Source of the DNA: Minisyncoccota bacterium
Lineage (GTDB): Bacteria; Patescibacteriota; Minisyncoccia; Phycocordibacterales; JAACPR01
Direction of reading: 5' to 3'
Length of the DNA stretch: 40,051 bases
NCBI GenBank assembly: GCA_043728995.1
Contig: JAYTLZ010000014.1
Location: 1-40,051, forward strand
The translations under genes and the position numbers were made by a program. Numbering within the stretch: the stretch's first letter is position 1; each line of letters starts with the position of its first letter. The notes under the pieces are model-generated. The model had not been told where the DNA came from. It ran no database searches and was given only the letters and a program-made list of their open reading frames with translations. Shown piece after piece: positions 2,749-37,605 of this stretch.

Positions 2749-2817
2749 GGCAGTATTGTACCAACTTATATGACTTTGCAGAAGATTTTTGACTGGATAA
2801 TTACGAAGCGCGTATCA

Positions 2818-2846
2818 TTGACGTAAACGTATTTATACTGTATTAT
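2818..2846 (+). promoter_or_regulatory. sigma70-like promoter (TTGACG-17-TATTAT)
   Basis: TTGACG at 2818-2823, a 17-nt spacer, then TATTAT at 2841-2846. A second weaker candidate is TTGACT 2789-2794 / TATCAT 2813-2818. Confidence 0.4.
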
Positions 2847-2878
2847 TATTGAGCTGTCCCGGTTACCAAACCACAGCA

Positions 2879-3232
2879 ATGTTACAAATAGTTCAAAGAA
2901 AAAAGGAAAACAAGTGGGCATTCGTGCTCGGCGGACTCAGGATCGAATCGGAACTTGGATCACTCCTCGTTCTTATCGAAACATTCCAACGACTTCAACA
3001 GGCCTCAGCCAGGCCTCCACTTGAAGTCGTCGCAATATTCCACCGTCACAAGGTCTACCTGAACGTCACTGACATCAGGCAAGAAGACGAAGATACGGAA
3101 TCCTACGAGATTCGCGGTACGGTTACGCAGACCAGTCGGTTCACACCTGACATCAAGCGTTTCACGACCGTCAAAATCATAGGATGCCGTCCTGACGGAA
3201 TCGCGGAGGCAGTCCACCGCAAGCATCGATAA
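2879..3232 (+). CDS. hypothetical protein (weak call)
   Basis: ORF 2849..3232 with the first ATG at 2879 and no SD. It is bracketed by the promoter at 2818-2846 and the terminator at 3251-3288. No family recognised. Confidence 0.3.
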   Translation: MLQIVQRKKENKWAFVLGGLRIESELGSLLVLIETFQRLQQASARPPLEVVAIFHRHKVYLNVTDIRQEDEDTESYEIRGTVTQTSRFTPDIKRFTTVKIIGCRPDGIAEAVHRKHR

Positions 3233-3250
3233 CCCACGCACCCAAACGAA

Positions 3251-3288
3251 GGGGCGACGAACATCACGTTCGCCGCCCCTCTTTTTAT
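3251..3288. terminator. intrinsic terminator
   Basis: GGGGCGACGAAC-atcac-GTTCGCCGCCCC pairs 11 of 12 bp and is followed by TCTTTTTAT. It lies between the + unit and the 3' end of rnc (-). Confidence 0.7.
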
Positions 3289-3307
3289 ATAAAATCAAAA
3301 CCGCGAA

Positions 3308-4012
3308 CTACACTGTCGGCATCCACTCCTTCTTCTCGAGTGCCTTGCGTGCAGCTTCCTGCTCGGCCTCTTGCTTGGACTTGCCCTTGCCTGTCGCGAT
3401 AGTCTCCTCACCAATCTTTACAGCCACGGTAAAATACTTGTTGTGGTCAGGACCCTCCTCGTGCGTCGTCTCGTATACAGGAGTGATGGAAAGCGTCTCC
3501 TGGGACTTCTCCTGGAAGAAGCTCTTGGCGTCGATAAACGACCCGTTCTCGACAATGCCATCCGTCAGTGATAGCAGGTATGTCTCGATAAACGTGTACG
3601 CGGCGTCATATCCCTGGTCCAGATACACAGCACCGATCACAGCCTCGAACGTGTCTGCAAGAATGTACTGACGAGCTCGCCCCGTATCCTTTGACTCTCC
3701 TTTTGAAAGAAGCAGGTATTCGTTGAACCCAAGTCCGGTCGCAACTTCAGATAATGTGTTCGTGTTCACGAGCGCAGCTCGGAATGACGTCAGCTCCCCC
3801 TCGTTTCGCTTGGGATATTTTTTATAGAGAAAGGCAGTCGCTGCCAATTCCAAAACGGCATCACCCAGGAACTCCAATCTCTCGTTATGGTCCTTCGCGC
3901 TCTTGTTCTCGTTGATGAACGATCGGTGCGTGAATGCCTGCTGGATGAGTTCCTTGTCGTTGAATGTGATGCTTAGTTTTTCTTCTAGGATTGAAAATTC
4001 AGGTAGTTGCAT
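3308..4012 (-). CDS. rnc: ribonuclease III
   Basis: RNase III signature NERLEFLGDAVLE, plus a C-terminal dsRBD-like segment (GKGKSKQEAEQEAARKAL). Confidence 0.93.
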   Translation of the reverse strand: MQLPEFSILEEKLSITFNDKELIQQAFTHRSFINENKSAKDHNERLEFLGDAVLELAATAFLYKKYPKRNEGELTSFRAALVNTNTLSEVATGLGFNEYLLLSKGESKDTGRARQYILADTFEAVIGAVYLDQGYDAAYTFIETYLLSLTDGIVENGSFIDAKSFFQEKSQETLSITPVYETTHEEGPDHNKYFTVAVKIGEETIATGKGKSKQEAEQEAARKALEKKEWMPTV

Positions 4013-4015
4013 AGG

Positions 4016-4909
4016 TTAGCTCTTGATGAGAATCTCGATCGATTTGGTTATCAAAGGCACAATATCATTGTAGAAGTTTAAGTCAAGAATCTCAGAAGCG
4101 CGGAACCACCGTGCGTCGTCGAGTCCTCCGGACTCGCCAAGCTTTACGTCCTCGTAGTTTGCTTCAGCAAGATAGTACAGAACGTGCTTTCGGTGCTTGC
4201 CCTTCTCAGGATGGTTGGCTACGTACTCGTTTTCTCCGAGCACATTTCGCACCTCAGTGACCGTAAGGCCGATCTCCTTCATGATGACACGCTTTACGCC
4301 GTCAGCATCGGTCTCCCCTTCCTCAAGTCCTCCCTTTGACAGGGTCCAGTGTCCGAAGACGTCGTGCACAAGCGCAAAGTACAGATCTGTACCTTGTCGC
4401 GCGTAGACCACGGCTCCAACCTTCTTCTCGACCGGCATGTCCTCGAAGGCGATCTCCTTCTTGCGAGCAGCACCCTGGTCCTTGCCAGGCTCGCCGATCT
4501 CCTTGTAGACCGCACCAAGCACTCCGTTCACGAACTTACCGCTGTTCTCACCACCGAAGCTCTTTGCAAGCTCGATGGCCTCGTTGATGGCAACCTTTGG
4601 CGGAACCTCTCCTCGGTCAGAGAAAAGAAGCTCGTACAGACCGATGCGCAAAACGTTTCGGTCTACTGTGGATATCTTTTCGATCGGCCAGTCCGGAGCG
4701 GCCTTGTTGATGATAGCGTTTAGGTCTTCGGTTTTGGCGATGACACCTGAAAGGAGATTCTTCATGAACTCAAGATCTGCAGCGCTGTCCGCGAACTCCG
4801 CGATGTTGCGGTGCAAAATATCAATCGACTCGTTTGTAGTGATTGTATTGAAGTCCCACTCGAAAAGAGTTTGCAAGACTATCGATCTTGAAAGGTGCCT
4901 GTTTGCCAT
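4016..4909 (-). CDS. nusB: NusB antitermination factor fused to a C-terminal Nudix-fold domain
   Basis: Residues 1-140 are NusB-like (SRSIVLQTLFEWDF, DRNVLRIGLYELLF, VAINEAIELAKSFGGENSGKFVNGVLGAV). Residues ~160-297 are Nudix-like, with the box GGLEEGETDADGVKRVIMKEIGL. Confidence 0.85.
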   Translation of the reverse strand: MANRHLSRSIVLQTLFEWDFNTITTNESIDILHRNIAEFADSAADLEFMKNLLSGVIAKTEDLNAIINKAAPDWPIEKISTVDRNVLRIGLYELLFSDRGEVPPKVAINEAIELAKSFGGENSGKFVNGVLGAVYKEIGEPGKDQGAARKKEIAFEDMPVEKKVGAVVYARQGTDLYFALVHDVFGHWTLSKGGLEEGETDADGVKRVIMKEIGLTVTEVRNVLGENEYVANHPEKGKHRKHVLYYLAEANYEDVKLGESGGLDDARWFRASEILDLNFYNDIVPLITKSIEILIKS

Positions 4910-4938
4910 ACTAAAGTGCTAATTGATTACTCACTCAA

Positions 4939-5157
4939 TTATTTTACCTTCTTTTTTGTTTTTGTCGATTTTACAGAGGCTACTTTTTCAACAGGTCGGA
5001 TTGCTTGCTTCCCCTTGTAGATCCCGTCCTTGGTGGCTCGGTGTCTTAGGTGGATAGTTCCAGTCTCCTTGTCAGTTGTTACTGCTGATGCTGTGAGAGC
5101 GTGGTGTGAGCGCCGATTTGCTGTGTGCGCTCGTGTGTGTCTCATTCGAATAGTCAT
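4939..5157 (-). CDS. rpmF: 50S ribosomal protein L32
   Basis: Internal start MTIRMRHTRAHTANRRSHHALTA... (ATG at 5155-5157, reverse strand). The N-terminus is basic and L32-like. Promoter TTGACT-17-TATCGT ends 9 nt upstream. Confidence 0.8.
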   Translation of the reverse strand: MTIRMRHTRAHTANRRSHHALTASAVTTDKETGTIHLRHRATKDGIYKGKQAIRPVEKVASVKSTKTKKKVK

Positions 5158-5224
5158 AGTGAGAATACGATAGCAGATATTATGGGATAAGTCAAAAGGT
5201 GTGGATAGATGGAGGCGGCAGGGT

Positions 5225-5256
5225 GGAAAATGCCCCGCGCCAAAGGCGCGGGGCAT
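5225..5256 (-). terminator. intrinsic terminator downstream of ORF 5274..5969
   Basis: ATGCCCCGCGCC-aaa-GGCGCGGGGCAT is a 12-bp stem. The T-tract on the minus strand is short (TTTTC). Confidence 0.55.
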
Positions 5257-5273
5257 ACTGCGAAGGCAGCGAC

Positions 5274-5969
5274 TTACTCACTGATTCCGTAGTAGAAAGT
5301 CTCGGAACTGACAAACCCCTGATGCAGGTTGTACGCAATCAGCTCCACGCGGCTGCTTCCGTCCTTGCCTATCCCGAAGCACATCTGGTACTCACGGTTG
5401 CCGATTTTGAACGGATCATGGCAGATCCGTTTCCACAAATCGGTTTCGGGAACCAAATGGGCATCACGGATACCGATCCCTTGGGGAAATATCGGAAACT
5501 GTACGCGCAATAGAAGACTGAATACTTCTGTTTGCGTGAAAGGACGTCCCCTTGAGCTTTCAATTTTGTCTTTGATCATCCCGAGGGTAACGAGCTTGAT
5601 GGCAGGCAATGAATCATGAGGACGATCGATCAGCCTTAGTACCTGAGCACGAAACACGGTTGCGCTTCGCGTTGTTCTTTTGATTCTGGCAATCTCTGCG
5701 TCAGGCACCGCTTCAACGTGGCGAGTGAAATGATACTTGGCATCTGGATCAGATCTGCCAGTTCTCGGAAACAACTTACGGACAGTCTCCCATGAGTGAC
5801 TGACGCGCTGCGGCTGCGTCATCTTTGCCTCGGACAAAAGCGTCGGCAGGTGCAACAGAATAAGTGGCGAAAGCACTATCCCGCTTTTTGCACAGATTTT
5901 CTGATACCTTTCAGCAGTCATCTTCTTCATGACGTAATTGGATATGTGGGTTGTGAGAGTGAGTTCCAA
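5274..5969 (-). CDS. hypothetical protein
   Basis: 231-aa ORF with no recognised motifs. The start is uncertain (M1, M14 or M17). Confidence 0.55.
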   Translation of the reverse strand: MELTLTTHISNYVMKKMTAERYQKICAKSGIVLSPLILLHLPTLLSEAKMTQPQRVSHSWETVRKLFPRTGRSDPDAKYHFTRHVEAVPDAEIARIKRTTRSATVFRAQVLRLIDRPHDSLPAIKLVTLGMIKDKIESSRGRPFTQTEVFSLLLRVQFPIFPQGIGIRDAHLVPETDLWKRICHDPFKIGNREYQMCFGIGKDGSSRVELIAYNLHQGFVSSETFYYGISE

Positions 5970-6045
5970 ACAGGATGTAAGGAACTATGGTGGTCACTTC
6001 ATTAGAGCATCCATTTAACCTTTCACCAATCTGCTCGCCTGTGGA

Positions 6046-6091
6046 TAAAACAAAAAGAAAAGGCCGGCAAGGGGTAAACCCCTTGCCGGCC
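6046..6091 (-). terminator. intrinsic terminator of the membrane-protein gene
   Basis: GGCCGGCAAGGGG-taaa-CCCCTTGCCGGCC is a perfect 13-bp stem. It is followed on the minus strand by TTTTCTTTTTGTTTT. Confidence 0.85.
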
Positions 6092-6111
6092 GATATTTAG
6101 AATCTCGGAAC

Positions 6112-7161
6112 TCAGCAGAAACCGCCGCGCGTACGGACACATCGCGACAAGAAACCGCGTACACGTCTCTCAAACTGGCGATACACCAAATACTCGACTA
6201 GGCCAAACGCAAATCCAGCTGCCAAACAGATCAGTGGAGCCTCTCGGTATGCGCCGAACCACTCCGCCACTACTCCAGACATAAACCCAACGAATGAGCA
6301 CGTAAAGATCGCGAGGCGAGCTCTCGTGTTCAGAAGAAGGAAAAGCCGCGAAAAGAATATGAGGACAAACAGTGTACCCGTCACAATTCCGATCCGACTT
6401 TTTCTATAAACCTTCCGGGACAATTCCGGGACATACTGAATAAACTTTCCGATTCCCAGACACGTGAATGCGACGATCGATAGCACCATGCCGGTAAAAA
6501 GAATCGATATCCCAATCGGATTGAACATCAGCAGGCTATGGAAAGTCTGCTTAAGGCTCTTGGTGCAGTCTTTCCTATGGCGCCGCCTTCCTAGTACCTC
6601 GCAGAGATACACATCCTCGAACGGGTCGTCCTTAGGCTCAATAAGTGCGCCAAAAAATATGATGCCTCGAAGTACCAATGTAGACAGAAACCCGACGACG
6701 ATTATCGTCATCCAAAAATCCGCCGTGGGTTGTTTGAGATGGATCGCAAGAAAAGCGTACGAGAGCGTCATGGCCCATGAAAACAGAACTGCCCAACGCA
6801 TGAATGTAATTAACCGCTTTGTCCGACGCGTGATCTTCTGATACATCAGATCTTTCTTGTTCTTTCTGACTCGCGTCCAAGCAAGCCATTCTTCGTGCTG
6901 TGTTTGTTTGCGGCGTTTGCGGCTGTGATGAGCAAAAACTGCCTCACCGAATGCAGACTTGATTGCGGTTAGCACATCGGCTGGCCGGAACGCTACGAGT
7001 CCGAAAATAACGGAAAGGGCGAAGCCGATCAGGACGCTCGGTCCGAAAGACAGCTGGTACTCAAGGTGAGCGTAACGATAGGCAACGAATCCGGCGAGGC
7101 CAGACAGGCTGCCAACAAATACCCAATGAATCGGTGAGTTCGACGTATTTTTTGTGTTCAT
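6112..7161 (-). CDS. polytopic membrane protein, unknown function
   Basis: 349 aa with many hydrophobic segments separated by R/K-rich loops. A strong terminator lies downstream. Confidence 0.7.
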   Translation of the reverse strand: MNTKNTSNSPIHWVFVGSLSGLAGFVAYRYAHLEYQLSFGPSVLIGFALSVIFGLVAFRPADVLTAIKSAFGEAVFAHHSRKRRKQTQHEEWLAWTRVRKNKKDLMYQKITRRTKRLITFMRWAVLFSWAMTLSYAFLAIHLKQPTADFWMTIIVVGFLSTLVLRGIIFFGALIEPKDDPFEDVYLCEVLGRRRHRKDCTKSLKQTFHSLLMFNPIGISILFTGMVLSIVAFTCLGIGKFIQYVPELSRKVYRKSRIGIVTGTLFVLIFFSRLFLLLNTRARLAIFTCSFVGFMSGVVAEWFGAYREAPLICLAAGFAFGLVEYLVYRQFERRVRGFLSRCVRTRGGFC

Positions 7162-29579: not shown

Positions 29580-29960
29580 ATGAGAAAACAATTGTTCATC
29601 GCAGCCACACTCGCCATCGCATACGGCATCCTTTATTTCACATCGCTCCAGTCTGTCCTCAAACGGGATCACCTCAACCGATATCAAAGACTTACGAGTC
29701 AAGACAAGGAGCTGGTAGATCGTTACGAGGCTTCAGTACGGAAGATCCAGCCCGGAGATCTGGTAACGGACGACACCGGTACGACTTACATCGTGGAAAA
29801 CTACCAAAGTACAGGTCGTTGGCGAATGAAGGCCAAGGACGGTACCATAAAGTACCTGAGCGAGGCTTTCGAATCAGCCCACAAAAACCGCACGTGCAGT
29901 TTCACTCATCGCAGTGATCCGCACTATGTGCAGGCCGTTCACACGTTCAAGCTGGAGTAA
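29580..29960 (+). CDS. membrane-anchored hypothetical protein
   Basis: 126 aa with an N-terminal TM segment (LFIAATLAIAYGILYF). A structured leader lies upstream and a terminator downstream. Confidence 0.6.
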   Translation: MRKQLFIAATLAIAYGILYFTSLQSVLKRDHLNRYQRLTSQDKELVDRYEASVRKIQPGDLVTDDTGTTYIVENYQSTGRWRMKAKDGTIKYLSEAFESAHKNRTCSFTHRSDPHYVQAVHTFKLE

Positions 29961-29996
29961 CGCCCCAGCTCACACGATCGCTGACAGTGGTCAGCA

Positions 29997-30027
29997 GCGC
30001 CCCGTATCCACGGGGCGCTTTCTTTTT
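29997..30027 (+). terminator. intrinsic terminator
   Basis: GCGCCCCG-tatcca-CGGGGCGC followed by TTTCTTTTT. Confidence 0.85.
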
Positions 30028-30073
30028 ACGCCCTGGTCAAATAGCCTTTGTTCTGCTACTATATTCCCTACAT

Positions 30074-30155
30074 GCCGGGGTGGCGAAATTGGTATACGCA
30101 CCTGCCTTAGGAGCAGACGGGGCAACCCATGGAGGTTCGAGTCCTCTCCCCGGCA
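30074..30155 (+). tRNA. tRNA-Leu (TAG), CCA not encoded
   Basis: Acceptor GCCGGGG pairs with CCCCGGC. The anticodon loop is CTTAGGA. It has a long variable arm, and the T arm is GGAGG-TTCGAGT-CCTCT. Confidence 0.88.
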
Positions 30156-30210
30156 CAGCGCGTTTGTTTTTGAAATAGGTATAGTAATCTGTTAGGATTA
30201 ACTGTACCTT

Positions 30211-30295
30211 GCTCGGGTGGCGGAACTGGTATACGCGCACGACTTAAAATCGTGTTCCGAATGGAATATGGGTTCGACCCCCATCCCGAGCACCA
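30211..30295 (+). tRNA. tRNA-Leu (TAA), CCA encoded
   Basis: Acceptor GCTCGGG pairs with CCCGAGC. The anticodon arm is CACGA-CTTAAAA-TCGTG. It has a long variable arm, and the T arm is ATGGG-TTCGACC-CCCAT. Confidence 0.9.
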
Positions 30296-30333
30296 TTGGT
30301 AAGTCCACTTAGCAATGTTAAGATACACCACAT

Positions 30334-30406
30334 GCGCCTATAGCTCAGTCGGTAGAGCAGTCGCCTCTTAAGCGAACGGTCGTAGGTTCGAATCCTACTA
30401 GGCGCA
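30334..30406 (+). tRNA. tRNA-Lys (CTT), CCA not encoded
   Basis: Acceptor GCGCCTA pairs with TAGGCGC. The anticodon loop is CTCTTAA. The T arm is GTAGG-TTCGAAT-CCTAC. Confidence 0.9.
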
Positions 30407-30511
30407 CCTTGTCGGACAGCAAGTTCGAAATCAATTTTAACCTTATTTAGAGCCGTATAATCGGTTTATTTTGCATGTCTTCTGTAGGGCTAGTCGGACG
30501 GAGTTCGCACC
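30400..30511 (+). repeat. island junction copy 0 (tRNA 3' end + left-arm block)
   Basis: AGGCGCACC, then GTCGGACAGCAAGTTCGAAA, then CCTTATTTAGAGCC (30441-30454), then GTAGGGCTAGTCGGACGGAGTTCGCACC (30484-30511). Confidence 0.8.
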
Positions 30512-30638
30512 TTTGACAGACCTCGGTATTCGTACTCGAATTTACATATTGCCAAGGAAGTGTTAGTTTGGTTCTGAAACAGTCAGAGAAGGCACAGTTG
30601 CCTCCTCCCTCTCAAAAAACAGAAAACAAACAGAAGAC

Positions 30639-31550
30639 ATGACAGCGACTTTTCGACTTAACCCCACGGGTTTCCGAGTTCCCGCCCTTGAGGAAATCAG
30701 TGACGACTTCAAGTCAATGTTCAAGAAACATTACCACTGCATCCCGGAGATGGAGGATACCGACAAGGTGGCATCCCTCCTTCTCTCATCTTCCTGTCTC
30801 GAAGAGACAGGCGGAGGAGGAGAGATTCTGCAACGACTCATCTTCAAGATGCAGGACGAAGAAAAGGATATGTACAGCCAACGGCTTCCTGGTGCTGCCA
30901 GTTGGTGGGCACAGCTCCTTCTCAGACTCGGAACAGAACCCTACGACCTTGGCATCTTCAGCCTCGAGGATCTTGGATTCACGGATCCGAAAATATTCGA
31001 ACGAGCAACCGTCGCAGACCTGGTGGAACGCGGCAGGCAGCTCGGACTGCGGCATGTTCCCTATCCCTCTGTAGCGGCACTCGTACTCGCGAAGCCGAAA
31101 GTTTCCTGGGGATCAGGAGTGGTGATCATGACCGAGCCCGTAAACGTCATCTGTGGCGATCTAGGGTGGCGGAACAGACCTCCGTACCTTAAGTACTGGT
31201 TGATCGAGGGAAGAAGCACCGAGAGCGTGCTTCATTACGCGTATGGAAACCCGACGCGCAAGATAACGGAAATGGAAGACGAAAAAATGGTTTTCGGTTC
31301 CTGTGCCACGGGAGAAATCGACATTCCCTCTCCGGCAAAACTCGGCTTCATGTTCGTCGTCCCACCGGGATTCAGACTGCCGCAGCCGAGGCCTCAGCAG
31401 GTAATCGAGGTGATCGAGTCTCCATCCATCACGCTTCTTGCGGACACGCAGATGACTGAAGAGGTTCAGATATTCGCCCTTCCGTCCTGCAATGATGACA
31501 GCGAGCTGATCAGTACGGCCTCCACAATGCAGGAAGCCGTGCTCGTCTGA
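30639..31550 (+). CDS. hypothetical protein (island module 1)
   Basis: 303-aa ORF starting at an ATG, with its own terminator at 31568-31602. No family recognised. Confidence 0.6.
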   Translation: MTATFRLNPTGFRVPALEEISDDFKSMFKKHYHCIPEMEDTDKVASLLLSSSCLEETGGGGEILQRLIFKMQDEEKDMYSQRLPGAASWWAQLLLRLGTEPYDLGIFSLEDLGFTDPKIFERATVADLVERGRQLGLRHVPYPSVAALVLAKPKVSWGSGVVIMTEPVNVICGDLGWRNRPPYLKYWLIEGRSTESVLHYAYGNPTRKITEMEDEKMVFGSCATGEIDIPSPAKLGFMFVVPPGFRLPQPRPQQVIEVIESPSITLLADTQMTEEVQIFALPSCNDDSELISTASTMQEAVLV

Positions 31551-31567
31551 ATGTTCGGTTTACCAAC

Positions 31568-31602
31568 AAGGCGCAGCGGTACCCCGCTGCGCCTTTTCTT
31601 AT
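31568..31602 (+). terminator. intrinsic terminator
   Basis: AAGGCGCAGCGG-tacc-CCGCTGCGCCTT followed by TTCTTATG. Confidence 0.8.
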
Positions 31603-31712
31603 GCGGCCGTCGACGCGCACATTGGACAGGTCCCGACTAATGTTTTAATATCACGGAAACTGATTCAATCAGACCAGAACACCAAAATACAAACAAGAAA
31701 GGAATCCCGACC

Positions 31713-32309
31713 ATGACCTCAACAAGCTCGAAACTCACGCTTGCAGACTTTGACAGCTCATCAACCATCACGCACCACCTCCTGCCCGACGAACGCCTCT
31801 TCCTGGTAACGCATAGCGAAAACGGAAAAGGGGTATTCTCGGCAGCGACGGAGTCATTGATAGTCCCCTGCGGCACGGAGACGGTCAACATCTCGCCAAT
31901 CGAAACGCTTGTCACCGGATCAAAAGTCCTGTGGCTCGTCACGCAGAAGGACGAGACCGAACGCGTCTACGCATCCGCAGGAAAAAGGTGTGGGAGGATC
32001 GGTCCGCTTATCGAGCTTAAAAAAGGATGGAAATTGGACCGCGCACTTTCCGACGACATCCTTCTTCTCTGGGTAGAGAGTAGCCGTCCGAACCGTCGCT
32101 ATCGGTTAGCCTTTCTGAAATCCGGCTCAAATGTGCTGGATTTCCAGACTAACTGGACGCAAATACATATCGGAAAGATCATCGTACGCCCAAACAGAGA
32201 TTTTATCATTCCGTTTCAGCGAAAGGACGGCGTCTACCCCCGTGGGCACATCATCTTTCTTATCAACAGTGAGTCCGAGACCATTGAAAATTACACCTTT
32301 GGTCAGTGA
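31713..32309 (+). CDS. hypothetical protein (island module 1)
   Basis: 198-aa ORF starting at an ATG, with a terminator at 32331-32367. No family recognised. Confidence 0.6.
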   Translation: MTSTSSKLTLADFDSSSTITHHLLPDERLFLVTHSENGKGVFSAATESLIVPCGTETVNISPIETLVTGSKVLWLVTQKDETERVYASAGKRCGRIGPLIELKKGWKLDRALSDDILLLWVESSRPNRRYRLAFLKSGSNVLDFQTNWTQIHIGKIIVRPNRDFIIPFQRKDGVYPRGHIIFLINSESETIENYTFGQ

Positions 32310-32330
32310 GCACGGACTCGCTAGATACAT

Positions 32331-32367
32331 GGACGCAACGAAAGCAATCGTTGCGTCCTTTTTTCTT
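32331..32367 (+). terminator. intrinsic terminator
   Basis: GGACGCAACGA-aagcaa-TCGTTGCGTCC followed by TTTTTTCTT. Confidence 0.85.
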
Positions 32368-32542
32368 ATGCAGCCTTTCTCCTTTCACCTGTGGATAAGC
32401 CTTTGCCAGCTGTGCGAACTTTGTCCAACAAGGCGCACCTAATATTCGATACGTCGAAATTCCTATTATAGCCTTATTTAGAGCCATGAAATCATGGTAA
32501 GTTTTTGATTTTCCGTAGGGCTAGTCGGACAAAGTTCGAACC
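32366..32542 (+). repeat. island junction copy 1 (complete)
   Basis: In order: CTTATGCAGCCTTTCTCC, TGTGGATAA (32390-32398), GTGCGAACTTTGTCCAACAAGGCGCACC (32412-32439), CCTTATTTAGAGCC (32472-32485), and GTAGGGCTAGTCGGACAAAGTTCGAACC (32515-32542). It contains a perfect 12-bp inverted repeat: CGAACTTTGTCC (32415-32426) and GGACAAAGTTCG (32527-32538). Confidence 0.85.
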
Positions 32543-32586
32543 TAACCGAAATACGCATCGATTCTATAAAATGATATGATGACCGC

Positions 32587-33372
32587 ATGGAGAACCTATG
32601 GGAGAAAGTAGTCCGGCTTCTGGACGAGCTGGAGGCTGACGGAGACCTGGAGAAGGCGAAGGCGTTCTACGAGAGGCACATCAGGGCGCGGGAACACTCC
32701 GAGAAGGACCTCGACATCGCCCTCTTCGAGCTGCGCGAGGCGCTCTTCGTGCATCCCAACTTCTCACCGAGCAGCAGGCATCGAGATCTCAAGACCTCGA
32801 TCGCGATAGTCAGGGACGAGATCGGCCCGACTGTGAGGATCGAGGACTACTTCGAGAGGTTCGACTTCGAGGCGTGCAGGCTCGAGATACTCCCATCCTA
32901 CGACTCGTGGGAAAACAGCCCCGGGCTCGCCGACTACCTCGCGGGAAACACACCCAAGGAACCAGCGTTCGATGAGTGGTGCTCCAGGATGGCGGCCGCG
33001 AAGGCGGAGGGCAGGAAGTACAAGAGGCTCCGGTTCGTGACCTTCCCGCTCATCGACTCCGTTAGGTACGAGATAGACGCGTGCTTCCGCAGATCCGCTA
33101 TGGCCGGCGAGGAGATCAAGTACTTCGCCCATGCGCCCGTCCTGAAGGGCGCGCTCGGCACAAAGGACTTCTGGCTGTTCGACGGCAAGGAGCTGGTCAT
33201 CCTGGATTACAGGCTCAACGGCACCTTCTGCGGAGCGAGGCTCGCCTCCCCCGAGCTTGCCAAGGATATAGCAGCCTGGTGGGAAGGAGTCTTCGAGATC
33301 GCGGGACCGATCCGTGACCTTCCCTTCTGGGGCGACCGGGGCAACCGTACTGCCGAGAAGAGGCGGCGATAA
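32587..33372 (+). CDS. DUF6879-like protein with helical N-terminal extension (GC-rich)
   Basis: The C-terminal half (YKRLRFVTFPLIDSVRYEIDACFRRSAMAGEEIKYF...KDFWLFDGKELVILDY..NGTF) resembles the DUF6879 consensus as I remember it. The extended -10 TGaTATGAT ends 6 nt before the ATG. Confidence 0.55.
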   Translation: MENLWEKVVRLLDELEADGDLEKAKAFYERHIRAREHSEKDLDIALFELREALFVHPNFSPSSRHRDLKTSIAIVRDEIGPTVRIEDYFERFDFEACRLEILPSYDSWENSPGLADYLAGNTPKEPAFDEWCSRMAAAKAEGRKYKRLRFVTFPLIDSVRYEIDACFRRSAMAGEEIKYFAHAPVLKGALGTKDFWLFDGKELVILDYRLNGTFCGARLASPELAKDIAAWWEGVFEIAGPIRDLPFWGDRGNRTAEKRRR

Positions 33373-33438
33373 ATTTAATTACTCCATAAACAACATGACA
33401 GGAATAGCTATCCCATACCAATATGCTAGTATCAGCTT

Positions 33439-34494
33439 ATGAAGTTATACATCGACACGAATATCTACTTATCTTTCATTAGCCCAACAAGCGACATTAA
33501 ATCTCTCATAAGATTAAAAAAATTAATAAACGAGCAAAAGGTTGAGCTCATTCTACCCTCTCAAACGAAACAGGAATTCATCAAAAACTTCAAAAGCAGA
33601 GTTGCTCAAGAAAAAAGCAAGATAGAGAACGCAAAATCATCCATCGAAATCCCAAACCTGCTTAAAGGAGTGAAAAGACCTTCAAAAGAAGAGAAATCAA
33701 TAATTAAGCAGATTGACGATTTAAATAGTGATCTGAAGATTTATCACAAAACAAAATTAAAGGATTTCAAAAATCACATAGACAGCACTGAAAAATTGTT
33801 AGATGAAATATTCACAGCATCCACGTTCTTTGAATATACAGACGACATCGTTCAAAAAGCCTTAATTAGGTATGCAAAAGGACTCCCGCCAAAGAAAAAT
33901 GATTTTAAATTTGGAGACTCTATCATCTGGGAAACCTTAAAGGACAATATTCGAAATGAAGATCTGGTCATTGTAAGCCATGATGGAGACTTTGCAGAGA
34001 ATTCAAATAAACCCCTTAGGATTAACAAGACTCTCGCTGCAGAATGGAAAAAAGAAAGAAAGAGAAAGATAAGCTTACATAAAGTGCTTGGCGAATTCAT
34101 CAATACGCTTGATAAGCAGGATGTTGTTGATTCTGATACCATTGACCGTGAAATCAAACAGGCTAACGCCCTACACAATCAGTATGTTATTGCTGCTAAC
34201 GATCAGCCTGCTTATATCTTAAATAACGGTAGTCTTTCCGTGCCCAACATTGGTGCGGCGACATACAAAATACCAAATGCAAGCAATTTGGTCATAAATC
34301 CAAATTCAAATCTTGCCAATCTTTCCTCTTACAGAATTAACTATCAAGAAAATGATTACAGCGCTTACATCTTAGGCAACAATAAAAAATGCTCTAAATG
34401 TGGCAAAGACTTTTTCCCGGGACTGTTAAGTGTTAGTGACAATCTTTGTGCGGAATGTACGCTTAACAAATATCAACACTGGGATTTTAATTAG
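33439..34494 (+). CDS. PIN-like (DUF4935-like) nuclease-fold protein with C-terminal CxxC..CxxC zinc ribbon (AT-rich)
   Basis: MKLYIDTNIYLSF (first acidic site), GDSIIWETL, VSHDGDF, and C-terminal CSKCGKDF...LCAEC. The extended -10 TGcTAGTAT ends 6 nt before the ATG. Confidence 0.65.
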   Translation: MKLYIDTNIYLSFISPTSDIKSLIRLKKLINEQKVELILPSQTKQEFIKNFKSRVAQEKSKIENAKSSIEIPNLLKGVKRPSKEEKSIIKQIDDLNSDLKIYHKTKLKDFKNHIDSTEKLLDEIFTASTFFEYTDDIVQKALIRYAKGLPPKKNDFKFGDSIIWETLKDNIRNEDLVIVSHDGDFAENSNKPLRINKTLAAEWKKERKRKISLHKVLGEFINTLDKQDVVDSDTIDREIKQANALHNQYVIAANDQPAYILNNGSLSVPNIGAATYKIPNASNLVINPNSNLANLSSYRINYQENDYSAYILGNNKKCSKCGKDFFPGLLSVSDNLCAECTLNKYQHWDFN

Positions 34495-34510
34495 ACCCAC
34501 TGATCCAATC

Positions 34511-34700
34511 TTGCTGTGGACAACTTTCAAAACAGGTTCGAACTTCGTCCAACAAGCTGCACCCAGTAGAACGGCCCTCTGAGGCCCAAAATACCCTTTA
34601 TTTTCAACGTAAATTCATCACGCGAGCCCGACCTCGGACTCTTTTATCGTAAATGGGCCTTTGTTAGAGCGGTGCTAGGTCTAGCAACGAAAATGGGTTT
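34511..34700 (+). repeat. island junction copy 2 (degenerate)
   Basis: TGTGGACAA (34515-34523), then GGTTCGAACTTCGTCCAACAAGCTGCACC (34535-34563), then CCTTTGTTAGAGCG (34658-34671), then GCTAGGTCTAGCAACGAAAA. Confidence 0.6.
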
Positions 34701-34790
34701 TAGTCAAAAAGCGTTACGGCGTATGGAGCACGAAAAATGAAAATGCCCACGGCGCACATGGCGTCGCGGGCACTTGGATGTAGGAACGGC

Positions 34791-35093
34791 TCAGTCCTTC
34801 GGAAAGCGGTCGTCCCGCTCGTAGGTATCGGTCCCGGGAGGGACGAGCTTCCATTTTCCTTTCCGCAGGACGAGCACCCCGTCGAGCTGGAGCAGCTCGA
34901 TGAAGTCCGAGCCGGTGAAGCCCGGGAACATCTGCCTCTCCCCGAAGAGCTTGGCGAACTCCTGCTTCGAAATCCCGTCGCGCAGGCGCGGGAGCATGTC
35001 CCTCATCAGTTCCCCGACTTGGTCCGAAATCCCGGCACAGTAATGGTCGACGAAAGTCGTCTCTTCTCCGTCCTTCTTCTCCGTGGTTGGCAT
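34791..35093 (-). CDS. small hypothetical protein, divergent from the TIR operon (possible wHTH regulator)
   Basis: ORF 34791..35132. The internal ATG at 35093 is preceded by GAAAGGA 8 nt upstream. The C-terminus reads FIELLQLDGVLVLRKGKWKL. Calling this a wHTH is a guess. Confidence 0.45.
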   Translation of the reverse strand: MPTTEKKDGEETTFVDHYCAGISDQVGELMRDMLPRLRDGISKQEFAKLFGERQMFPGFTGSDFIELLQLDGVLVLRKGKWKLVPPGTDTYERDDRFPKD

Positions 35094-35204
35094 GGTCGTA
35101 TTCCTTTCTTGGTTGGATGATTCTGTTCCCATTTAACCACGAAGGGACTCCGATGGGAAATGGCCCCCTTGTACTTCCCCGCCCGCCGCGGTAGTGTCAG
35201 GCGC

Positions 35205-35756
35205 ATGAGTGAAAGAAGAAAGTGGGAGATATCGGACAAGGCGCTGGCGGAATTCCACAGGATCGCTGTGGCCGAGACCGGCGTCGACGCCACCATGGAC
35301 CAGGCGCGCGAAGTCGCGGAGTGGATGCTCTCGCTCGCCGACAACGTCGCGGGGCACAGGCGGTCGGTCCGAGCGATGGAGGAAGGGCTTGCCGGCTTTC
35401 CCGACGGGTACGAGCTGCCGCCGGACTCAGGGTACGACTGCTGGATCTGCGGCGGCGGGCGGCGGGAGTTCCGCGAGGTCTGGTTCGATAGGACAGGCGT
35501 GAAGTGCGGGCCCTGCTACATGACGTTCCGCAAGCGCGCGCTTCCCCTCTCCGTCGCGACCGACCGCGAGTCGTGGTATGACGACTGGGACCTGAAGCGC
35601 AGGCTGGGCATGACCTCGCGCATGATCGCGGTAAAAATCGGGAGCGGCGAGCTGATCGCGCGCACCGTGAAGGGAACAGGGTTCCGTATTTTCATGATCA
35701 AGGAGAACCCGTCGCTTCCCTATCCGAGGCCAGACGTGGTACGATTGCGTCAATGA
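35205..35756 (+). CDS. zinc-ribbon (CxxC..CxxC) plus C-terminal HTH-like protein
   Basis: The protein reads MSERRKWEISDK...CWICGGG...CGPC...WDLKRRLGMTSRMIAVKIGSGELIARTV, which is excisionase/MerR-like by eye. Its stop overlaps the next start (ATGA at 35753-35756). Confidence 0.6.
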   Translation: MSERRKWEISDKALAEFHRIAVAETGVDATMDQAREVAEWMLSLADNVAGHRRSVRAMEEGLAGFPDGYELPPDSGYDCWICGGGRREFREVWFDRTGVKCGPCYMTFRKRALPLSVATDRESWYDDWDLKRRLGMTSRMIAVKIGSGELIARTVKGTGFRIFMIKENPSLPYPRPDVVRLRQ

Positions 35757-36703
35757 GCAGGCCCACGCCCAAGGTTTTCATATCATATTCCCACGACAGC
35801 GAAGCGCATAAAGACTGGGTGCTGACTTTGGCAACGCGTCTGATGAGCAACGGCGTCAATGTCGTCCTTGACCAATGGGACCTTGAGCTCGGCGGGGACC
35901 TGCCACTCTTCATGGAATCTGGCCTGACCTCGGCCGACAGAGTCATCGCGGTGTGCACAGGAGCGTATGTCGAGAAGGCCAACGCAGGCAAAGGTGGCGT
36001 AGGCTACGAAAGGATGATCATTACCCCTAGCCTTATGAGGAACATCAGCGACACGACTATTATTCCCGTGATTCGCAACAGCGAGGACGCCCCTACTCCC
36101 ACGTTCCTTGCCTCAAAGCTCTACATCGACTTTCGAAACGACTCGGACCTCGAAGCCGGTTACGCGCGGCTTATAAGGGAAATCCATGGGGAAGGCGTGA
36201 AGCCGCGTCCCGCTCTCGGGCCAAACCCCTTCGACGACGACGTCAAATGGCGCGAGCCAAGGCTTGAGTTCTCAAGCGAGCGCTACGTCTCGCCTACCCT
36301 TCGCGGCGTCGTGACGTTTGATTACTCAGACAACAACGGGGAGTTCGTGCTCGGATCTGGAAAGATGGCCTTCGAAACGAAGTGGTCCAGCGCAAGCAAC
36401 GACTCCATCCATTCCTACGTCTGGAATGAAAACATCAGCACAATGGCAATTGCATTCGGAGTCGAGAAGATCAGCGACATCCGCGACGCCGGTGTCTTCA
36501 ACACCTCTTCGACGAGCCGGACACCCCGCATCAACGAAATCATCGTCTGGCAGAACTCCGCTGGCTACTATGCGGCAGCACTCATTGTGGCCGTCTCCTG
36601 CCGTTCGCACGGCCGGGAAGGAGACAGTGTAACCTTCTCCTACGTGGTCCAGCCCAACAGAACCGGCGACTTCAGCAATTTTGATGAGGTAGAAACTGTT
36701 TGA
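35753..36703 (+). CDS. TIR/SEFIR-type domain protein with uncharacterised ~165-aa C-terminal domain
   Basis: The N-terminus reads KVFISYSHDSEAHKDWVLTLATRLMSNGVNVVLDQWDLELGGDLPLFMESGLTSADRVIAVCTGAYVEKANAGKGGVGYE. This matches the bacterial TIR-like pattern (FISYSH, D.W.L, FME, VCT..Y, GV.YE). Confidence 0.8.
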   Translation: MSRPTPKVFISYSHDSEAHKDWVLTLATRLMSNGVNVVLDQWDLELGGDLPLFMESGLTSADRVIAVCTGAYVEKANAGKGGVGYERMIITPSLMRNISDTTIIPVIRNSEDAPTPTFLASKLYIDFRNDSDLEAGYARLIREIHGEGVKPRPALGPNPFDDDVKWREPRLEFSSERYVSPTLRGVVTFDYSDNNGEFVLGSGKMAFETKWSSASNDSIHSYVWNENISTMAIAFGVEKISDIRDAGVFNTSSTSRTPRINEIIVWQNSAGYYAAALIVAVSCRSHGREGDSVTFSYVVQPNRTGDFSNFDEVETV

Positions 36704-36715
36704 TAGCCTGAACGA

Positions 36716-36811
36716 GCCTTATTCCTAAGCAGCCTCCCTCCACTCCCCTGTGGATAAGGGTCTGCCAACCGTGCGAACTTCGTCCAACAAGGCGCACCAA
36801 GTCGGACAGCA
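36716..36811 (+). repeat. island junction copy 3 (right end, attR-like)
   Basis: CTAAGCAGCCTCCCTCC, then TGTGGATAA (36749-36757), then GTGCGAACTTCGTCCAACAAGGCGCACC (36771-36798), then AAGTCGGACAGCA. Confidence 0.8.
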
Positions 36812-36853
36812 TATCCACGTCTCATGCATCCTGTTTCGTGTTACCATTTACAT

Positions 36854-37564
36854 ATGAAAATTCTTATGATTCTCACCGGCTTACTCGTTATCGGTATTTT
36901 TTATGCATATCCGTTTTATAGGACGACCAAGATAAGTGCAAAACTAGAAGAGAACACAATTCCTTACGAGCAAAGCCCTGCAGATCCAGACATGACTATC
37001 CTCATCGCTGGTGATAGTACAGGCGTCGGAACAGGTGCAACGGAAACCCAAGATTCTACGGCTGGCAGAATCGGGTCACTGTATCCGCGCGCAACGATCA
37101 CAAATATTTCAGAAAATGGATTAAAGCTTGAAGATTTGGAACAAAAACTGAGCAGCGTATCTGATACATATGACCTCATCGTGCTTCAGATTGGAGCGAA
37201 CGATATCGTACGACTTTCTTCCTTCAAAAATATCGAGCAACGAGTTGAATCTGTACTCACGCTTGCAGAGGGCATTGCGGACAACGTCCTAGTCCTGACA
37301 TCAGGAAACATCGGCTCGTCCCCTACCTTTAGGTGGCCGCTCTCAGCACTGATGGACTATCGGACCCGGAAGGTGCGTGAGATTTTCTTGTCAAAAATTT
37401 CAACGCACCCAAAGATATCATACGTAGACTTATATAAAGAAAGAAAGGATGACGAGTTTTCAAAAGACCCTCAGAAATATTACGCAGCGGACAAATTCCA
37501 CCCAAGCAGCAATGGCTATGCGATCTGGTTTGAGAAGATGAAAAGCGTCCTTGCGAGCAAATAA
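36854..37564 (+). CDS. membrane-anchored SGNH/GDSL-family hydrolase
   Basis: MKILMILTGLLVIGIFYAY is the TM segment. ILIAGDSTGVGTGA is block I (GDS). LQIGANDIV is block III. DKFHPSSNGY is block V (DxxH). Confidence 0.8.
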   Translation: MKILMILTGLLVIGIFYAYPFYRTTKISAKLEENTIPYEQSPADPDMTILIAGDSTGVGTGATETQDSTAGRIGSLYPRATITNISENGLKLEDLEQKLSSVSDTYDLIVLQIGANDIVRLSSFKNIEQRVESVLTLAEGIADNVLVLTSGNIGSSPTFRWPLSALMDYRTRKVREIFLSKISTHPKISYVDLYKERKDDEFSKDPQKYYAADKFHPSSNGYAIWFEKMKSVLASK

Positions 37565-37577
37565 CAAAGTACTATAT

Positions 37578-37605
37578 TTGACTTTATAATTAAACATGGT
37601 ATTAT
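37578..37605 (+). promoter_or_regulatory. sigma70-like promoter with extended -10
   Basis: TTGACT at 37578-37583, a 16-nt spacer, then TGgTATTAT with the -10 at 37600-37605. Confidence 0.5.

Follow-up and report, generated by a model that had tools for sequence, protein, structure and literature searches.

Composite islands of the staphylococcal cassette chromosome (SCC) type, including SCCmec, consist of tandem cassettes rich in defence genes that are mobilized by the Ccr serine recombinases (PMC11470126). Here, we describe a gene array with a repeated junction, first noted at 32366-32542, in the DNA of Minisyncoccota bacterium (GenBank assembly GCA_043728995.1, contig JAYTLZ010000014.1, positions 1 to 40,051 of the forward strand); we refer to this whole stretch of 40,051 nucleotides as the window. 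The junction is probably an attP-type site of an element family moved by a large serine recombinase (LSR), and it persists between recombinase-less modules that are lined up behind a tRNA-Lys(CTT) gene after serial integration at its 3' end. Readings of the junction as an integron site or as a replication origin are not supported. As in SCC/SCCmec, tandem cassettes occupy one site, att sequences are repeated, many cassettes lack a recombinase and carry anti-phage genes, and the LSR comes from one array member. Unlike in SCC/SCCmec, the target is a tRNA 3' end and not rlmH (orfX), with no rlmH beside the array; there are no ccr genes, the LSR being apparently of a different clade; attP overlaps the recombinase's own last codons; and the hosts are uncultured Patescibacteria- and Verrucomicrobia-like organisms, in which mobilization of the array is predicted. 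The array is an analogue of an SCC-type cassette chromosome and not a member of that group. SCC/SCCmec is the nearest known system in logic, and the phage serine integrases are the nearest in chemistry.

The serine integrases of phages and of integrative and conjugative elements (ICEs), such as those of A118/LI, Bxb1 and phiC31, use an attP of ~50 bp and an attB of ~40 bp with two boxes per half-site, an outer motif that lies 5 bp nearer the centre in attB and a short shared core (PMC3783163); the sites described here appear to share these features. For a serine integrase, Rutherford et al. showed this 5-bp difference in the position of the outer, zinc-ribbon-domain motif and also that attB is ~10 bp shorter than attP (PMC3783163). 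Unlike the sites of these integrases, attB here is a tRNA T-arm/acceptor with the universal T-loop sequence as its outer motif; attP and attB almost coincide in their right half-sites, a palindromic GC forms the centre, and the products pile up as arrays.

The array also resembles integrons in that small, often defence-related, recombinase-less cassettes lie between imperfect palindromes; integrons differ in using a tyrosine recombinase that acts on a folded single-stranded attC with extrahelical bases, none of which was found here. In streptococci, cis-mobilizable elements (CIMEs) accrete together with ICEs. With these elements and with the tycheposons of Prochlorococcus (10.1101/2020.12.28.424599), the array shares the target at a tRNA 3' end, integrase-less att-flanked cargo accreting beside an autonomous element and a hypervariable island. 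These systems differ in that their recombinases are of the tyrosine type and the duplicated tRNA fragment is longer. According to Islander (2014), tRNA genes were not among the known targets of serine integrases (PMC4383910). A limited literature search found no earlier serine integrase at tRNA genes, and later island catalogues may hold some.

The array is a 6.4-kb insertion at tRNA-Lys(CTT)

The region 30000-37500 opens with three tRNA genes, of which tRNA-Lys(CTT) is the last. The features on which the following analyses are based are:

30334-30408 (+), tRNA-Lys(CTT) gene (ARAGORN; Rfam, 73.6 bits); its 3' part, GGTTCGAA (30385-30392), TCC, TACTAGGCG and CACC (30405-30408), corresponds to the left half of attB
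32365-32410 (+), conserved P arm of the junction between modules 1 and 2 (J12), including TGTGGATAA; profile match 32353-32444, E = 6e-24
32411-32439 (+), attP-type left half-site and core of J12: outer box TGTGCGAA, CTTT, inner box GTCC, AACAAGGCG, CACC
34511-34563 (+), junction between modules 2 and 3 (J23): type-B P arm with TGTGGACAA (34515-34523), half-site GGTTCGAA CTTC GTCC, core AAGCTGCACC; profile match 34477-34569, E = 5e-20
36710-36798 (+), terminal junction (attR): full P arm, TGTGGATAA at 36749-36757, half-site GTGCGAA CTTC GTCC, core AAGGCGCACC; profile match 36710-36804, E = 1e-26
36799-36865 (+), chromosomal right flank B': AA GTCGGACAGCA TATCCACG..., leading into the GDSL lipase gene and aligning with contig L084 after the tRNA end (alignment A4)

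Contig L084 was found via homologues of the GDSL lipase encoded directly downstream of the array, and its lipase is 81% identical to that in the window. It starts with GGTCGTAGGTTCGAATCCTACTAGGCGCACC-TA-ATCGGACAGCACGTCCGCATCTCATG...TTTCGTGTTACCATT, i.e., the tRNA-Lys 3' end fused straight to the lipase flank. This empty site (tRNA-Lys 3' end, TA, ATCGGACAGCACGTCC..., lipase) matches window positions 30378-30408 joined to 36799 onward (alignment A4), such that the same 31 nt of the tRNA 3' end sit against the lipase flank. Because the tRNA end and the lipase flank are contiguous in L084, positions 30409-36798 of the window are inserted DNA, which amounts to 6.4 kb and directly follows tRNA-Lys(CTT). 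At the tRNA, attL reads GGCGCACC TT GTCGGACAGCA AGTTCG, and at 36789-36811 attR reads GGCGCACC AA GTCGGACAGCA TATCC. The recombination products on record comprise the empty attB in L084, attL and attR in the window, and intact attP-type junctions beside LSR genes (see below). The lipase homologues carry the source names Paceibacterota or Patescibacteria, and the housekeeping genes of the window include those for SMC, RNase III, DnaE, ThrRS, ClpB, a 502-aa IF-2 and sortase; both lines of data suggest that the host is of the CPR type.

In a second contig (L085), the lipase is 84% identical, and the upstream DNA contains the end of another open reading frame (ORF) and a terminator instead of a tRNA gene (L085 1-217), so that close relatives differ in synteny around the site. 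The contigs L084 and L085 both stop no more than ~220 nt from where the lipase begins, a behaviour that a variable or repeated site would lead one to expect.

The inserted DNA consists of three recombinase-less modules of ~2 kb each with the repeated junction between them, and GC content across the modules ranges from 0.44 to 0.61. No recombinase of either family is encoded in the window (Pfam; 30 ORFs were scanned without a Phage_integrase match), and tblastn with a tyrosine integrase gave no match there. The sole recombinase trace in the window was obtained using tblastn with an LSR, and it lies on the minus strand of the junctions themselves, where residues 578-605 match 36811-36728 (E = 4e-6) and residues 583-605 match 32437-32369 (E = 0.003). 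Rfam detected only tRNAs in 29800-37600, in addition to sub-threshold chance matches.

The junctions have an attP-like architecture with a 5-bp shift relative to the tRNA

All features that the earlier note had listed for the junction were found, at most 1 base from where it had placed them. The DnaA-like 9-mer TGTGGATAA is at 32390-32398 and 36749-36757, and its variant TGTGGACAA is at 34515-34523; the inverted repeat formed by CGAACTTTGTCC (32415-32426) and GGACAAAGTTCG (32527-32538) spans 12 bp with perfect pairing and extends to 34 nt at 74% complementarity; and the pyrimidine block is present, starting at 32365 instead of 32366. The partial copies reported at 30400-30511, 34511-34700 and 36716-36811 are true homologues, as supported by repeat comparison and by the E-values obtained with a profile of the ~95-nt left part (listed above), and the homology among the junction copies in the window is beyond chance. 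What had been overlooked is that AAGGCGCACC in the junctions is identical to the last ten bases of the tRNA-Lys(CTT) gene (TAGGCGCACC). As a copy of the tRNA 3' end, this sequence leads us to read the junctions as repeats of an attachment core.

Alignment of all copies gave a common layout, in which TGTGGAYAAG is followed by 10-12 nt, an outer box GKTKCGAA, 4 nt, GTCC, 18 nt and GGAC. Thus, each junction comprises a conserved ~95-nt arm with TGTGGAYAA, the half-site GKTKCGAA-N4-GTCC and a core (GCACC) that is identical to the tRNA end, and the architecture GGTTCGAA-N4-GTCC-N18-GGAC is kept in relatives. The tRNA counterpart is GGTTCGAA-TCC-N18-GGAC, i.e., it has the same boxes with the outer box abutting the inner box. 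Comparing the tRNA with all element copies, we observed a five-column gap exactly between GGTTCGAA and TCC (MAFFT alignment A1). GGTTCGAA in the tRNA is, accordingly, 5 bp nearer to the crossover and core than in the element copies, and the tRNA sequence that is repeated in the element amounts to 9-10 nt beside this 5-nt indel. As judged from these alignments, the left half-sites, and these only, obey the published 5-bp rule for attB and attP.

To the left of GCACC, the core of J23 has AAGCTG and the tRNA has TAGGCG; to the right, attL has TT and attR has AA. Because the bases differ on both sides of GCACC, the exchange is placed within these 5 bp, which in J12 are at 32435-32439, downstream of the 5-nt insertion relative to the tRNA. 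Xer/dif-like module boundaries were dropped as a candidate: the sequence GGTGCG... resembles the XerC arm of dif, and there is no XerD-type arm.

Related junctions overlap the 3' ends of LSR genes

Scans with exact and degenerate patterns identified the junction in one species-representative genome and in one additional metagenome-assembled genome (L092), while the other matches were due to chance. A scan of a metagenome collection gave one 1.9-kb contig with the junction (L057), and a scan of viral contigs did not find it. Locus L077 was added through homologues of ORF 35160-35756. L008/L026 represent the same locus as L076/L078, which is on a contig of a metagenome-assembled genome labelled Akkermansia. 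The full right-end arm is conserved among the window, L008/L026 (=L076), L057 and L077 (E = 1e-20 to 1e-28), and J23 is 90% identical to L057 over 61 nt; diverged arm copies are present in L079 and L081 (E = 1e-8 to 1e-12) and in L092 (E = 6e-7). These data support the junction as a conserved functional unit that is also present in other genomes.

In L076, L077 and L057, the last junction of the array abuts an LSR gene (605/633 aa; Resolvase and Recombinase domains), the two versions of which are 78% identical. The search for an adjoining recombinase gene, which the earlier note had suggested, led to this LSR gene. In L076/L078, L077 and L057, the full arm-plus-core covers the last ~14 LSR codons and the region downstream. 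The LSR ORF reads through the junction, its tail ...CPTWCSLLDEVRT corresponding to the reverse complement of GTGCGAACTTCGTCCAACAAGCTGCACCAAGTCGGACA and crossing the core and the outer box. In the diverged LSR homologues of L079, L081 and L082 (54-59% identical), the layout of half-site plus core is kept at the 3' end of the LSR gene. The link between an LSR gene (Resolvase and Recombinase domains, >500 aa) and the site, therefore, holds in the relatives, and the window keeps only the last ~25 codons.

We analysed the C-terminal tails of 120 LSR homologues. The pattern P.LL..xD.(V/I/L/F)R(T/K/R), which represents an unsplit attP, was intact in 56, while 11 tails ran on as ...LLRG-QDSNLRPID or similar (QDSNLRP...), which is the antisense of a tRNA T-arm. 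Another 28 ended 1-3 codons past P.LL, and 25 fitted no pattern. From the LL codons to the start of TTCGAAC, the distance is 16 nt in tails of the attP class and 11 nt in those joined to the tRNA, a difference equal to the 5-nt shift in alignment A1. That the tails diverge exactly at the crossover deduced from the DNA provides family-wide support for its position. Two of the read-through cases (L099 and L100) were checked in the DNA, and in both the 3' end of the LSR gene overlaps tRNA-Asn(GTT) on the opposite strand, tail-to-tail, among housekeeping genes. The tRNA site in L100 is GGTTCGAA-TCC-N18-GGAC, and the last 20 nt of this tRNA recur 8.1 and 8.8 kb away behind identical 60-nt arms (reverse-complement positions 10033, 18133 and 18865). 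L100 is an LSR element and a 732-bp mini-module in tandem, i.e., it follows the same array logic at another tRNA gene.

Other searches added less. A related-locus search with the LSR returned its own genome only. In L078 and L079, the outer boundary of the complete LSR element was sought, and no recognizable att site turned up. The LSR homologue from Giovannonibacteria (L086-L090) was uninformative, with no tRNA nearby. The loci L079-L083 are alike in three respects: their backbone includes a gene for a TrwB-like ATPase and, upstream, a small ORF; cargo follows the 3' end of the LSR gene; and extra junction copies are present. The cargo of the relatives' arrays includes Gabija-like OLD/UvrD pairs, an SduA_C protein, a PycTM protein and AAA_15 ATPases, and the modules are in either orientation, contain several genes and have their own terminators.

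Several additional observations were made in these loci. A module with a homologue of ORF 35160 and a Gabija-like pair is 91% identical between L076 (9929-13821) and L077 (10019-13905); it is followed by different arm types (type A versus type B), and L076 has one more module before the LSR gene. The same module with differing junction arms and module numbers suggests that the arrays are mosaics. Near a tRNA-Val gene, L078 contains a second, more canonical LSR (614 aa) and a TrwB/TraG-like ATPase beside the junction-associated LSR (1457-6323 and 294-368), and this locus is a compound mobile region. Finally, three TTCGMACC-like motifs at ~100-nt spacing are in the 3' coding region of the LSR gene (codons xRT, FEP and S(N/H)L) in the orientation of the attP outer box (L026 7560-7700, L077 14190-14310, and the LSR 3' regions of L079, L081 and L082); they are either secondary binding sites or a coincidence of conserved codons.

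Arms to the right of the core

The arms that follow the core, and the inverted arms at the left ends of modules 1 and 2, are:

30409-30493 (+), S1, element-side arm beside the tRNA (attL side), starting with TT GTCGGAC AGCAA GTTCGAAA and containing CCTTATTTAGAGCC
30494-30522 (-), left arm of module 1: GTCGGAC GGA GTTCGCACC and 11 nt, an inverted right-end half-site (I1, 33 nt, 82%; I8); profile E = 2.6e-10 on the minus strand
32440-32523 (+), S2, arm right of the J12 core, homologous to S1, with a degenerate inner box
32524-32542 (-), left arm of module 2: GTCGGAC AAA GTTCGAACC, inverted partner of 32412-32429 (I2, I4), with which it forms a hairpin
34564-34700 (+), S3, right arm of a second type, with conserved counterparts beside homologues of ORF 35160 in L008 and L077

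S1 matches S2 with E = 1e-8, and both match L026a with E = 0.002-0.014 (0.014 for S1 against the L026a S segment). In L026a, the ~90 nt past the core are a decayed copy of the last ~30 codons of the LSR gene (E = 3e-7 to 4e-6). S1 and S2 are thus likely a pseudogenized LSR 3' end, as suggested by this weak, transitive link. S3 matches its counterparts in L077 (L077bS, E = 4e-16) and L008 (L008aS, E = 8e-15).

The inverted arm (GTCGGAC-N1-3-GTTCGMACC) repeats the left half-site in the opposite orientation. It is present within 260 nt of 3 of ~17 junctions (tRNA/module 1, J12 and L076b) and missing at ~14, and full hairpins are formed at only two; its distance from the core is constant at 84-85 nt. 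Being present at few junctions, the inverted arm is not a defining part of the junction. It represents either the scar of a local rearrangement or an additional half-site, and not a feature of the family. An origin by antiparallel LSR recombination of two junctions was rejected since it would predict a core-only gap and not 85 nt; similarly, a reading of the left arm as LSR coding sequence was unconvincing, with only ~53% identity in a MAFFT alignment. The earlier note had also described the arms as co-varying by module. With only three modules and two sequence states, this pattern is not significant and would arise by chance in ~15% of cases, a rough estimate from the observed type frequencies.

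A model for integration, and its alternatives

Based on these data, we propose that one LSR dimer would bind the junction of a circularized module (attP) and a second dimer the tRNA T-arm/acceptor with the downstream GGAC (attB). Both duplexes would be cut with a 2-bp stagger within GCACC and would be joined by subunit rotation. In their right half-sites, attP and attB hardly differ (GTCGGACAG), and the tRNA-side product (attL) would consequently still be attB-like. In that case, the next module would insert at the tRNA, and the array would grow from the tRNA. With an attB-like attL, excision could also proceed in the absence of a dedicated directionality factor. Having no recombinase of their own, the modules would rely on a full-length element to provide the LSR in trans.

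Several observations weigh against this model. No LSR gene is present in the 40-kb window, for which recombination activity is putative, and the nearest LSR-bearing loci are from other organisms: one is labelled Akkermansia sp., whereas homologues of the window's lipase are labelled Patescibacteria. L077 also has a tyrosine integrase two genes away from the LSR. The LSR 3'-end profile does not detect the S segments of the window, which are linked to the LSR gene through L026a alone. The 5-nt shift is not uniform at the DNA level: the element arm in L100 copies 20 nt of the tRNA without it. The right half-sites have a weak outer box or none. Lastly, the symmetric centre is the palindromic dinucleotide GC, which would give a serine integrase no polarity; the true crossover dinucleotide may be offset from this centre.

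One alternative is a classical tRNA-targeting island array built by a tyrosine integrase, in which the junctions would be attP sites with arm-type or accessory sites (GCCTTATT and TGTGGATAAG) and the integrase would be lost or elsewhere. A tRNA 3' end is the textbook target of tyrosine integrases, in line with the statement in Islander that serine integrases were not known at tRNA genes (PMC4383910); moreover, GCCTTATT-like motifs flank the core on both sides, and the tyrosine integrase gene of L077 encodes a Phage_integrase protein of 455 aa. We nevertheless consider this origin unlikely, given that no tyrosine recombinase is present in the window or within 10 kb in L076/L078, that in L076/L078, L077 and L057 the site runs into the stop region of the LSR gene, with the same half-site-plus-core in L079, L081 and L082, and that LSR homologues directly abut tRNA-Asn. 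Also, ~9 nt of identity between tRNA and element with an adjacent 5-nt indel is odd for islands that copy a long stretch of the tRNA. An Islander-type configuration, i.e., a tyrosine integrase aboard together with a displaced tRNA fragment that restores the gene, was not found in the window. About equally improbable in our estimate is that full LSR elements integrated serially and then lost recombinase and backbone, with the junctions left as decaying, functionless scars. Such a history would fit the resemblance of the parts right of the core to a pseudogenized LSR 3' end, the degenerate inner box right of the J12 core, the lack of an LSR in the window and a strongly decayed junction within module 1 (~31555-31640). 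It does not fit the intact TGTGGAYAAG and half-site at all three junctions or the ~95-nt arms, which are 83-86% identical to those of a distant genome with unrelated cargo; conservation of the arms beside unrelated cargo argues for selection or recent transfer. In addition, ORF 35160 is found with 100% identity in a different context in another sample (L075).

Two further readings, which take up features listed in the earlier note, fare worse still. The note had compared the junction to an integron attC, which would recombine as a folded single strand at the outer box by means of an IntI-like enzyme. Indeed, GTCCAAC fits the consensus RYYYAAC (GTCGGAC deviates from GTTRRRY at one position, as had been pointed out), the outer boxes end or start with AAC and GTT, and in a single example the outer box matches within a module and the TTT/AAA spacer within a junction, as a crossover between G and TT predicts. 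When the junctions were folded as single strands, J12 gave a long hairpin with z-scores of -4.3 and -3.9 on the two strands, and no shuffled sequence folded as well. The stem, however, has 12 perfectly paired bp with neither bulges or extrahelical bases nor an unpaired central spacer; the tRNA-side junction folds no better than shuffled sequences (z = -0.2); and on the plus strand, the pairing partner of the L026a arm is another sequence. In view of the lack of IntI in the window, the scarcity of the inverted arm, the core common to the tRNA 3' end, the overlap with LSR stop regions and the multi-gene modules of relatives, in either orientation and with their own terminators, an attC function is highly implausible. 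What does hold is the cassette-like arrangement, in that the region is a gene cassette array with site-specific recombination sites in between. The second reading is that TGTGGATAA is a working DnaA box, with the junction as an origin or a DnaA-controlled element, e.g., for an excised circle. The 9-mer is the exact complement of the DnaA-box consensus TTATCCACA and is held 10-12 nt from the half-site in elements with LSRs that are merely 54-57% identical (L079 and L081), as well as in L092. There is, however, one box per junction, replaced by TGTGGACAA in one of them, inside an insertion that is missing in a relative; we found no box cluster or AT-rich unwinding region at the junctions and no turn in cumulative GC skew at the junction region. 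Exact TGTGGATAA occurs three times in the window, and there are 14 matches with at most one mismatch versus 6.9 +/- 2.5 expected; beyond the homologous copies, there is no excess of exact boxes. A single, once imperfect, box per junction inside inserted DNA, without a cluster or a skew turn, argues against an origin, for which we see hardly any chance.

The conserved TGTGGATAAG lies ~36-45 bp from the centre of the site, i.e., outside a normal serine-integrase half-site. Conservation at this position points to an accessory protein, for which TGTGGATAAG is probably the site, with DnaA as a possible binder. The third exact TGTGGATAA (6040-6048) is intergenic, just upstream of an unannotated ORF (6112-7161, minus strand), and unrelated to the junctions.

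An LSR-dependent attP is, accordingly, our preferred reading of the junction. It coincides with an alternative that the earlier note had set against its own proposal, namely inherited attP arms of related islands; this alternative is the best fit, once a serine enzyme is taken as the recombinase. More tentatively, and with more doubt than confidence, we suggest that an LSR clade in Patescibacteria, Verrucomicrobia and other uncultured groups targets tRNA 3' ends with GGTTCGAA as the zinc-ribbon-domain motif and has its attP across its own stop codon; that attP and attB differ in the left half-site only, whereby integration regenerates a usable attB; and that the clade in this way builds and reshuffles integron-like arrays of recombinase-less defence cassettes that move between phyla. 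Such a system would be a serine-recombinase counterpart of the integron.

If the assignment to a serine recombinase is correct, targeting of tRNA genes would not be confined to tyrosine integrases, contrary to Islander (2014). At this locus, the 5-bp shift of the motif between attP and attB can be read straight from genomes, by comparing the tRNA T-loop with the shifted copy in the element, and the model for site discrimination becomes testable on a new enzyme clade. Recombinase-less cassettes common to distant phyla would offer a possible route for anti-phage genes into small, reduced genomes such as those of Patescibacteria. LSRs with a defined, universally conserved tRNA target are also potential integration tools. 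For annotation, junction repeats of this kind would be recorded as att scars and not as integron sites or origins.

Modules and their cargo

The three modules are:

30512-32364 (+), module 1: ORFs 30639-31550 and 31713-32309, without a Pfam or PADLOC match
32543-34510 (+), module 2: DUF6879 protein (32587-33372; Pfam, E = 3.6e-30) and PIN_12 protein (33439-34494; Pfam, E = 2.5e-20)
34701-36709 (+), module 3: ORF 34791-35132 (minus strand), Zn-ribbon/winged-helix-like ORF 35160-35756 and bSEFIR/TIR protein (35753-36703)

The protein encoded by ORF 35753-36703 matches Pfam TIR_2 (E = 1e-23) and the PADLOC defence model for bSEFIR (E = 9e-78). Judging by these matches, at least one module carries a predicted anti-phage gene (bSEFIR).

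The decayed fourth junction in module 1 lies between its two ORFs. Here, the 13-mer CCAACAAGGCGCA (31563-31575) is identical to the core region of the junctions and is followed by CTTATGCGGCC, which resembles the start of the P arm, and by GCGCAC ATT GGACAGG. The core sequence at 31568-31595 forms the stem of a terminator-like hairpin. Module 1 may, therefore, represent two single-gene cassettes. In module 2, the two ORFs (32587-34494) contrast in composition, the DUF6879 gene being GC-rich and the PIN_12 gene AT-rich, and no junction separates the two. This pattern points to a composite origin.

ORF 35160-35756 of module 3 encodes a 198-aa protein with homologues P0002-P0006. The family has CxxC...CxxC motifs and a C-terminal helix-helix-beta-hairpin region, and it had no match in Pfam, PDB sequences or PADLOC. 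An AlphaFold2 model (predicted local distance difference test score, 70) gave weak winged-helix/Xis-like Foldseek matches with E of ~1, including phage Xis and BldC. The protein could bind DNA and act as an accessory or regulatory factor for the cassettes. In L075 (1059 nt; sample ERZ28573521), the bSEFIR gene that follows the identical 198-aa protein ends after ~100 nt and unrelated DNA begins; either the same module has a different setting in this contig, or the contig is a chimera of the assembly. The family recurs in L076 (10001-10450 and 15944-16441), L077 (10001-10534) and L057 (~1240-1420), mostly just inside the right-hand arm of a junction.

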